NCBI RefSeq assembly: GCF_055900595.2
Contig: NZ_CM148325.1
Reading direction: 5' to 3' (one strand)
DNA: 64,000 nt
Both the position numbers and the translations under genes were made by a program. Shown here in pieces: positions 807-881 of this stretch. Within the stretch, counting starts at the first letter, position 1. Each line of letters starts with the position of its first letter. A model generated the notes under the pieces. It was given only the letters and a program-made list of their open reading frames with translations, made no database searches and was not told where the DNA came from.

Positions 807-881
807 CTAAATCGGTTTAGCGAAAATAATTGCTTTGGCTAAAAAGTCAGCTTTATTATCAACACCTAAACCGGTTTAGCA
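807..881. promoter_or_regulatory. Two direct copies of CTAAAYCGGTTTAGC (807-822 and 866-881), the second containing the perfect 12-bp palindrome TAAACCGGTTTA; candidate LacI-family (ScrR) operators in the scrK-scrY intergenic region
   Basis: Palindromic repeats read directly in the sequence, about 45-115 bp upstream of the scrY start codon; assignment to ScrR is inferred from context. Confidence 0.4.

Follow-up and report, generated by a model that had tools for sequence, protein, structure and literature searches.

Two near-identical palindromes precede the sucrose porin gene scrY in a scr cluster carried on a genomic island of Escherichia coli, and the question they raise is whether they are the operators through which the cluster-encoded repressor, ScrR, controls the promoter of scrY. 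An initial annotation of the 64-kb stretch of DNA analysed here (hereafter, the window) had proposed exactly this. The two copies, O1 and O2, are real: direct reading and a pattern search placed the O1 core, CTAAATCGGTTTAGC, at 807-821 and the O2 core, CTAAACCGGTTTAGC, at 866-880, these were the sole pattern matches on either strand of the 64 kb, and none of 100 dinucleotide-preserving shuffles contained any match. Some of the original measurements called for adjustment. The span of 807-881 starts at the right base and extends one base too far, the second copy ending at 880, and the reported separation of 59 bp is correct as a start-to-start distance, the gap between the copies (822-865) being 44 bp. 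O2 is indeed palindromic, with a perfect palindrome of 14 bp (CTAAACCGGTTTAG, 866-879) rather than the 12 bp initially reported, and O1 (807-820) is the same 14-bp palindrome with a single change, T812. Both sites are of the LacI-family type, that is, palindromes of 14-16 bp with a central CG.

The two sites are located inside the 167-bp spacer between scrK and scrY in an intact cluster with the order scrK-Y-A-B-R, all on the plus strand. The fructokinase gene scrK begins before the window (annotated CDS 2836-3756 in the corresponding locus of E. coli F163, L001, which is offset from the window by 3000), and its 3' part occupies positions 1-756, with the stop codon at 754-756 (NF006957, 376 bits, profile positions 59-302). 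It is followed by scrY (924-2441, 505 aa), a maltoporin-family match annotated as a carbohydrate porin, the orthologues of which are 55-83% identical in 80 species; by scrA (2502-3872), encoding the sucrose PTS EIIBC component (TIGR01996, 649 bits, cut-off 559); by scrB (3872-5281), encoding sucrose-6-phosphate hydrolase (TIGR01322, 545 bits, cut-off 356); and by scrR (5307-6314, 335 aa, GTG start), which encodes a LacI-family repressor of the fructose-responsive FruR/ScrR group (TIGR02417, 462 bits, cut-off 390). The presence of the scr genes and of a LacI-family scrR downstream, with scrK upstream, supports the interpretation of O1 and O2 as ScrR operators.

Such a pair of ScrR operators is already known from model systems and, in outline, from E. 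coli. According to a recent study (PMC11251922, Front Microbiol 2024), mutations identified the two 14-bp inverted repeats that flank the -35 and -10 elements of the scrY promoter of pUR400 as ScrR operators, and fructose or fructose-1-phosphate, as reported for pUR400 and Klebsiella pneumoniae, releases ScrR from operator DNA. The scrY promoters of eight species are aligned in the same source (Figure 5), where the ScrR operators on either side of the -35/-10 elements show high conservation, the downstream one lying over the expected start site. The pUR400 (Salmonella) and K. pneumoniae scr systems (Cowan et al. 1991; Jahreis and Lengeler 1993, both as summarised in PMC11251922) share with the window the two 14-bp inverted repeats, one directly 5' of the -35 element and the other directly 3' of the -10 element over the start, as well as a CRP site further upstream, a LacI-family ScrR and the gene order scrK-YAB-R. 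The sites of the window agree with this operator pair, which was first described in the early 1990s and aligned anew for E. coli in 2024, and with the mode of control that the initial annotation expected of a scr regulon. In the genome of K. pneumoniae ATCC 13883, which served as a proxy for the published operators, the sites are TTAAACCGGTTTAGC and CTAAACCGGTTTAGC, 58 bp apart; compared with them, the window has T instead of C at the sixth base of O1, a spacing of 59 instead of 58 bp and, as a further difference from pUR400 and K. pneumoniae, an extra TTTAGCA half-site 3' of O2. The ScrY proteins of the window and K. pneumoniae are approximately 74% identical and the ScrR proteins approximately 85%. 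Furthermore, residues 3-45 of the window ScrR, which comprise the helix-turn-helix, are identical to those of K. pneumoniae ATCC 13883 ScrR, as are the 11 residues of the hinge, and this identity in the DNA-binding region also speaks for ScrR as the cognate protein; K. pneumoniae ScrR is one of the two repressors named in the title of Jahreis and Lengeler (1993). Closer to home, the chromosomal scr locus of E. coli described in PMC11251922 belongs to the same locus family as the window, and in E. coli SCU-484, isolated from a 'healthy college student' in California and probably part of the isolate series of that study, the intergenic region is 98.8% identical to that of the window, with O1 and O2 unchanged. 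The CscR operators of the E. coli csc genes for non-PTS sucrose utilization show a similar layout, with two inverted repeats flanking the -35/-10 elements, the downstream one over the start, and a CRP site, but CscR is a non-orthologous LacI-family repressor, its repeats are 12 bp long and different in sequence, and the system employs the CscB permease (PMC11251922). We consider it very likely that 807-821 and 866-880 are the ScrR operators O1 and O2 of the scrY promoter, the binding of ScrR at these positions being a prediction from sequence.

Comparison across species shows how far the arrangement is maintained. Scanning species-representative genomes for ScrY yielded 73 loci from Enterobacterales and 7 from Aeromonas (80 in total), and the 190 bp 5' of scrY were aligned for 72 distinct Enterobacterales sequences. 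Of the 72 usable Enterobacterales loci, 60 have two sites, each with no more than three mismatches to the palindrome, approximately 117 and 58 bp 5' of the scrY ATG, with an O1-O2 spacing of 58 bp (n=16), 59 bp (n=15), 60 bp (n=28) or 56 bp (n=1), that is, 58-60 bp in 59 of 60. Information content peaks at 787-788 together with 798-802, at 806-821, 830-833, 854-859 and 865-881, and is near zero over most of the rest, O1 and O2 being the best-conserved non-coding blocks 5' of scrY in the 72 Enterobacterales species; positions 869-880 of O2 are invariant in all 72 except for C871 (93%). A gene for ScrR accompanies scrY in 76 of the 80 loci; the four without it are truncated at the edge of a contig, so that scrR is linked in every untruncated locus. 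The recurrence of the same pair at the same place in some 60 other Enterobacterales species, always in such company, lends the ScrR-operator interpretation further weight. A single matching operator is also found 5' of scrK in each of the 71 loci with sequence extending to this region; its position in E. coli F163 is 2791-2804 of L001, about 30 bp before the scrK start and outside the window. The remaining 12 of the 72 loci have the downstream site alone, the species concerned including Cedecea, Klebsiella sp. BIGb0407, Brenneria and Prodigiosinella, and because a few species keep O2 alone, O1 appears to be dispensable in some lineages.

The same alignment bears on the trivial explanation that the two copies arose by chance or by selfish duplication, for example of a small mobile or REP-like element, and have no regulatory role. 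The residence of the locus on a horizontally acquired island, beside an integrase and a tRNA-Phe gene, would suit such an origin, as would the variable copy number in E. coli of an 8-bp unit adjoining O2; however, there are no further copies in the 64-kb window, conservation spans exactly the palindrome, and the placement of the sites before scrY stays constant across genera in which the intervening sequence has diverged to randomness. Of all the explanations considered, this one strikes us as the least credible, to the point of being negligible.

Several loci depart from the common organization. Recognisable O1 has been lost and O2 kept in the Cedecea and Klebsiella sp. BIGb0407 loci (L028 and L072, respectively), which contain scrK, scrY and scrR and are devoid of scrA and scrB. 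The seven Aeromonas loci (L075-L081) have a different gene order, scrY, scrK, scrA, scrB, scrR, and two operator-like sites 31 bp apart, at approximately -110 and -78 from scrY, of which the upstream one, GCTGAAACGGTTTAGC, is a hybrid between the ScrR and Cra motifs.

A ScrR weight matrix derived from 146 sites in other species (L002-L081), with the window left out, assigned 27.5 bits to O2 in its 16-bp form (cCTAAACCGGTTTAGC, 865-880) and 24.4 bits to the corresponding form of O1 (aCTAAATCGGTTTAGC, 806-821, with one mismatch in its 14-bp palindrome), no strand being assigned to either, whereas the next match in the window reached 13.4 bits and the best of 20 shuffles 14.3 bits. The motif derived from the 146 sites, GCTAAACCGGTTTAGC, is consistently asymmetric: the scrY-proximal half, CGGTTTAGC, is nearly invariant in both O1 and O2, and the distal half is variable, its flanking base being A or C and seldom the symmetric G. 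The scrK operator shows the reverse, with the opposite half, GCTAAA, invariant. The search of the window for further ScrR sites returned matches at 19081, 63625, 35003 and 50666, none of which exceeded the shuffle maximum. The third-best match to the matrix overall, CCTAAACGGGTTTTGC at 19081-19096, was judged a chance match at 13.4 bits, below the shuffle maximum of 14.3. This sequence lies 5 bp 5' of a 711-aa core-genome ORF (19101-21236) of the same size as speC.

Given the kinship of the regulators, we considered whether O1 and O2 might be bound mainly by Cra (FruR), the chromosomal paralogue of ScrR, which would tie the sucrose genes to a global regulator of fructose and glycolytic flux. 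ScrR and Cra are closest relatives, TIGR02417 spans both, and the closest solved relatives of the window ScrR in the PDB are Cra proteins. Cra operators, such as those of epd-pgk and fruBKA, resemble those of ScrR in being 16-bp palindromes with GCT...AGC ends and a central CG, in the much better conservation of one half-site, and in being recognized by a paralogous regulator with fructose-1-phosphate as the inducer. In addition, deletion of cra in Enterobacter aerogenes lowers scrAB expression, and a Cra-box-like sequence is present in the promoter (PMC4521459), although this effect of Cra is activation rather than repression and could be indirect. The cores of the two motifs differ, nevertheless, with TGAAAC/GTTTCA in Cra operators and TAAACC/GGTTTA in those of ScrR, and it is at these family-distinguishing positions that the conserved motif of the scr loci departs from the Cra box. 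On manual comparison with the Cra consensus GCTGAAACGTTTCAGC, 11 of 16 positions agree in O1 and likewise in O2, compared with 14 of 16 for a Cra-type site at 57009-57024, which in turn scores 10.5 bits on the ScrR matrix against 27.5 and 24.4 bits for O2 and O1. Moreover, Cra is a global regulator that is not encoded beside its targets, unlike ScrR, and scrR and the sites under study move together, on a mobile island as well as on plasmids; for pUR400, dependence on ScrR has been demonstrated, according to PMC11251922. Predominant binding by Cra is hence, in our estimate, very unlikely. The Cra-type site itself, GCTGAAGCGTTTCAGT, is intergenic and located just 5' of epd (57062-58165), which is followed by pgk; judging from its sequence, it appears to be the operator through which Cra acts on the epd-pgk operon, in which case the window would contain both of the paralogous motifs.

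The initial annotation had further placed the two sites where a repressor would control the scrY promoter. This is consistent with the promoter elements that we predict on the plus strand, a -35 element TTGCTT at 830-835 (T830 and T831 100% conserved, G832 86%, C833 85%) and a -10 element TATTAT at 854-859 (T854 90%, A855 97%, T859 93%): the two sites bracket these conserved elements, and O2 lies over the predicted start. The elements are spaced by 18 bp, and their position puts the predicted transcription start of scrY at about 866, with the centre of O1 at approximately -52 and O2 covering approximately +1 to +15. The -35 element is weak, matching TTGACA at three of six positions, and a consensus promoter scan did not report the 830-835/854-859 promoter because of this poor match. 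A weak -35 element is what is expected of a CRP-dependent promoter. The promoter that the scan did propose, TTTACT-16-AATAAT at 803-830, was rejected since its -10 element is unconserved across species and it overlaps O1.

A CRP-like site, TGTCG-N6-TCACA, is found at 787-802 (no strand assigned), with a perfect right half and a degenerate left half; its centre is about 72 bp 5' of the predicted start, a class I position. The order of elements is accordingly CRP-like site, O1, -35, -10 and O2, with O1 wedged between the CRP-like site and the -35 element. The study in PMC11251922 also places a CRP operator further upstream at scrY and judges it 'not well conserved' on the basis of eight species, whereas in our alignment T787, G788 and the adjoining TCACA at 798-802 are invariant in all 72 distinct Enterobacterales sequences. 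This difference suggests that the CRP half-site is better conserved than recently stated, if, as we infer, the two are the same site.

From these elements, a mode of operation can be proposed in which we infer the exact start site as well as the separate roles of O1 and O2. The scrY promoter would drive scrY, scrA, scrB and probably scrR. Without sucrose, one ScrR dimer would occupy each 14-bp palindrome: bound at O2 (866-879), ScrR would cover the start site and block RNA polymerase, and bound at O1 (807-820), it would occupy the DNA that separates the CRP site from the -35 element and hinder CRP-dependent recruitment of polymerase. Uptake and cleavage of sucrose would yield fructose and fructose-1-phosphate, which would bind ScrR and cause its release, whereupon cAMP-CRP would activate the weak scrY promoter. 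The third operator, the single site 5' of scrK, is located just beyond the window.

Cooperative looping between O1 and O2 is not supported by their geometry because the centre-to-centre distance of 58-60 bp corresponds to approximately 5.6 helical turns, a phase unsuited to a simple repression loop. The tetramerisation helix of LacI is C-terminal. The ScrR of the window aligns to LacI residues 2-326 and ends there, and since the alignment stops at residue 326, ScrR appears to lack this helix. Considering both the absence of the LacI tetramerisation helix and the out-of-phase spacing, the two ScrR dimers would probably bind independently, without a LacI-style loop. A more elaborate variant of the proposed mechanism can be imagined in which O1 acts as a CytR-like anti-activator site that blocks contact between CRP and polymerase, O2 blocks the start, and the 8-bp unit TTTAGCAT next to O2 serves as an auxiliary half-site that tunes repression by its copy number. 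An anti-activator role of O1 fits the fixed out-of-phase spacing, the orientation of the CGGTTTAGC half towards scrY in both sites and the invariant CRP half-site abutting O1; as a whole, the scheme is a tentative one that we regard as rather unlikely.

A pair of complementary palindromes could also act in RNA, O1 pairing with O2 in read-through transcripts from scrK; the resulting 14-bp stem would terminate, attenuate or stabilise the mRNA. Folding of the 757-923 region does pair 807-820 with 866-879, with a free energy of -43.9 kcal/mol compared with -29.4 +/- 3.4 for shuffles (z = -4.2), and a T-rich stretch lies 3' of O2. Two copies of one palindrome are complementary by construction, however, so that the z score carries no independent weight, and we rejected the stem as the automatic outcome of having two such copies. 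The loop would be 45 nt long and a terminator scan found nothing; with the predicted scrY start at O2, O1 would be absent from the main scrY transcript. Nor does the comparative evidence favour pairing, the scrK operator being single and partnerless, some species having O2 only, the Aeromonas sites being 31 bp apart, and the frequent O1 variant that has A as its sixth base (24 sites) placing A opposite G in such a stem. A function of the pair at the RNA level appears highly improbable, and operators bound by ScrR remain our preferred explanation.

The genomic setting of the cluster is that of an integrated island of at least 17.8 kb (window 1-17889), which ends at a tRNA-Phe gene (17814-17889, minus strand) adjoined by an integrase-sized ORF (16447-17667); the core genes flanking it in the window include epd and pgk. 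An identical scr segment in E. coli F163 (L001, L082) is located at the other tRNA-Phe gene, near dsbD and dicD. Collinearity of the window with the F163 genome turned out to be wrong beyond the island, the window running into the epd-pgk region. With the island on the epd-pgk side in one case and at dsbD/dicD in the other, both tRNA-Phe genes therefore serve as sites for one and the same island. Of 5426 complete E. coli genomes, 987 contain the 6.4-kb scr segment at 99-100% identity, in most cases on the chromosome; 22 E. coli plasmids, the majority predicted to be conjugative, carry it as well. At the level of predicted elements, the analysis confirms that the scr cluster on the E. coli tRNA-Phe island possesses a complete native control region, composed of the putative CRP site, O1, promoter and O2 together with an intact scrR.

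Such a control region fits the rapid, inducible growth on sucrose reported for scr-positive E. coli, and a cloned E. coli scr locus confers faster growth on sucrose once its scrR has been deleted (PMC11251922). Beyond annotation, the importance of these sites is small, as the regulation is of the textbook kind and not a discovery. The operator coordinates should be useful for genome annotation, because RefSeq leaves the sites unannotated, with no annotated features beneath the match to the scrK-scrY spacer, and for the engineering of sucrose-inducible or derepressed strains. The minor new points are the sharpened motif GCTAAACCGGTTTAGC, the consistent half-site asymmetry, the invariant CRP half-site and a variable extra half-site after O2.

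Among E. coli records, 790 carry a 167-bp spacer with at least 99% identity to that of the window; identity is 95-99% in a further 197 and 90-95% in a single one. The three variants that were retrieved carry changes at 834 in the -35 element, at about 864 between the -10 element and O2, and as an 8-bp insertion 3' of O2, with no changes inside O1 or O2 among these three. The extra half-site, TTTAGCA at 883-889 on the plus strand, is a direct copy of the right half-site, located 8 bp after the copy inside O2, and it belongs to a tandem of the 8-bp unit TTTAGCAT at 873-890, where the window reads GGTTTAGCAtTTTAGCAa and contains two copies. Three copies of TTTAGCAT are present in E. coli PM06121 (L085), one genome among the 988 matching records. 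An extra half-site at the same offset was detected in 26 of the 72 Enterobacterales loci, including those of Brenneria and Prodigiosinella, which lack O1. The scrK operator region of E. coli F163 (L001 2788-2816, TTGCTAAATCGATTTAATTAGTTTAGCAA) has a similar extra TTTAGCAA.
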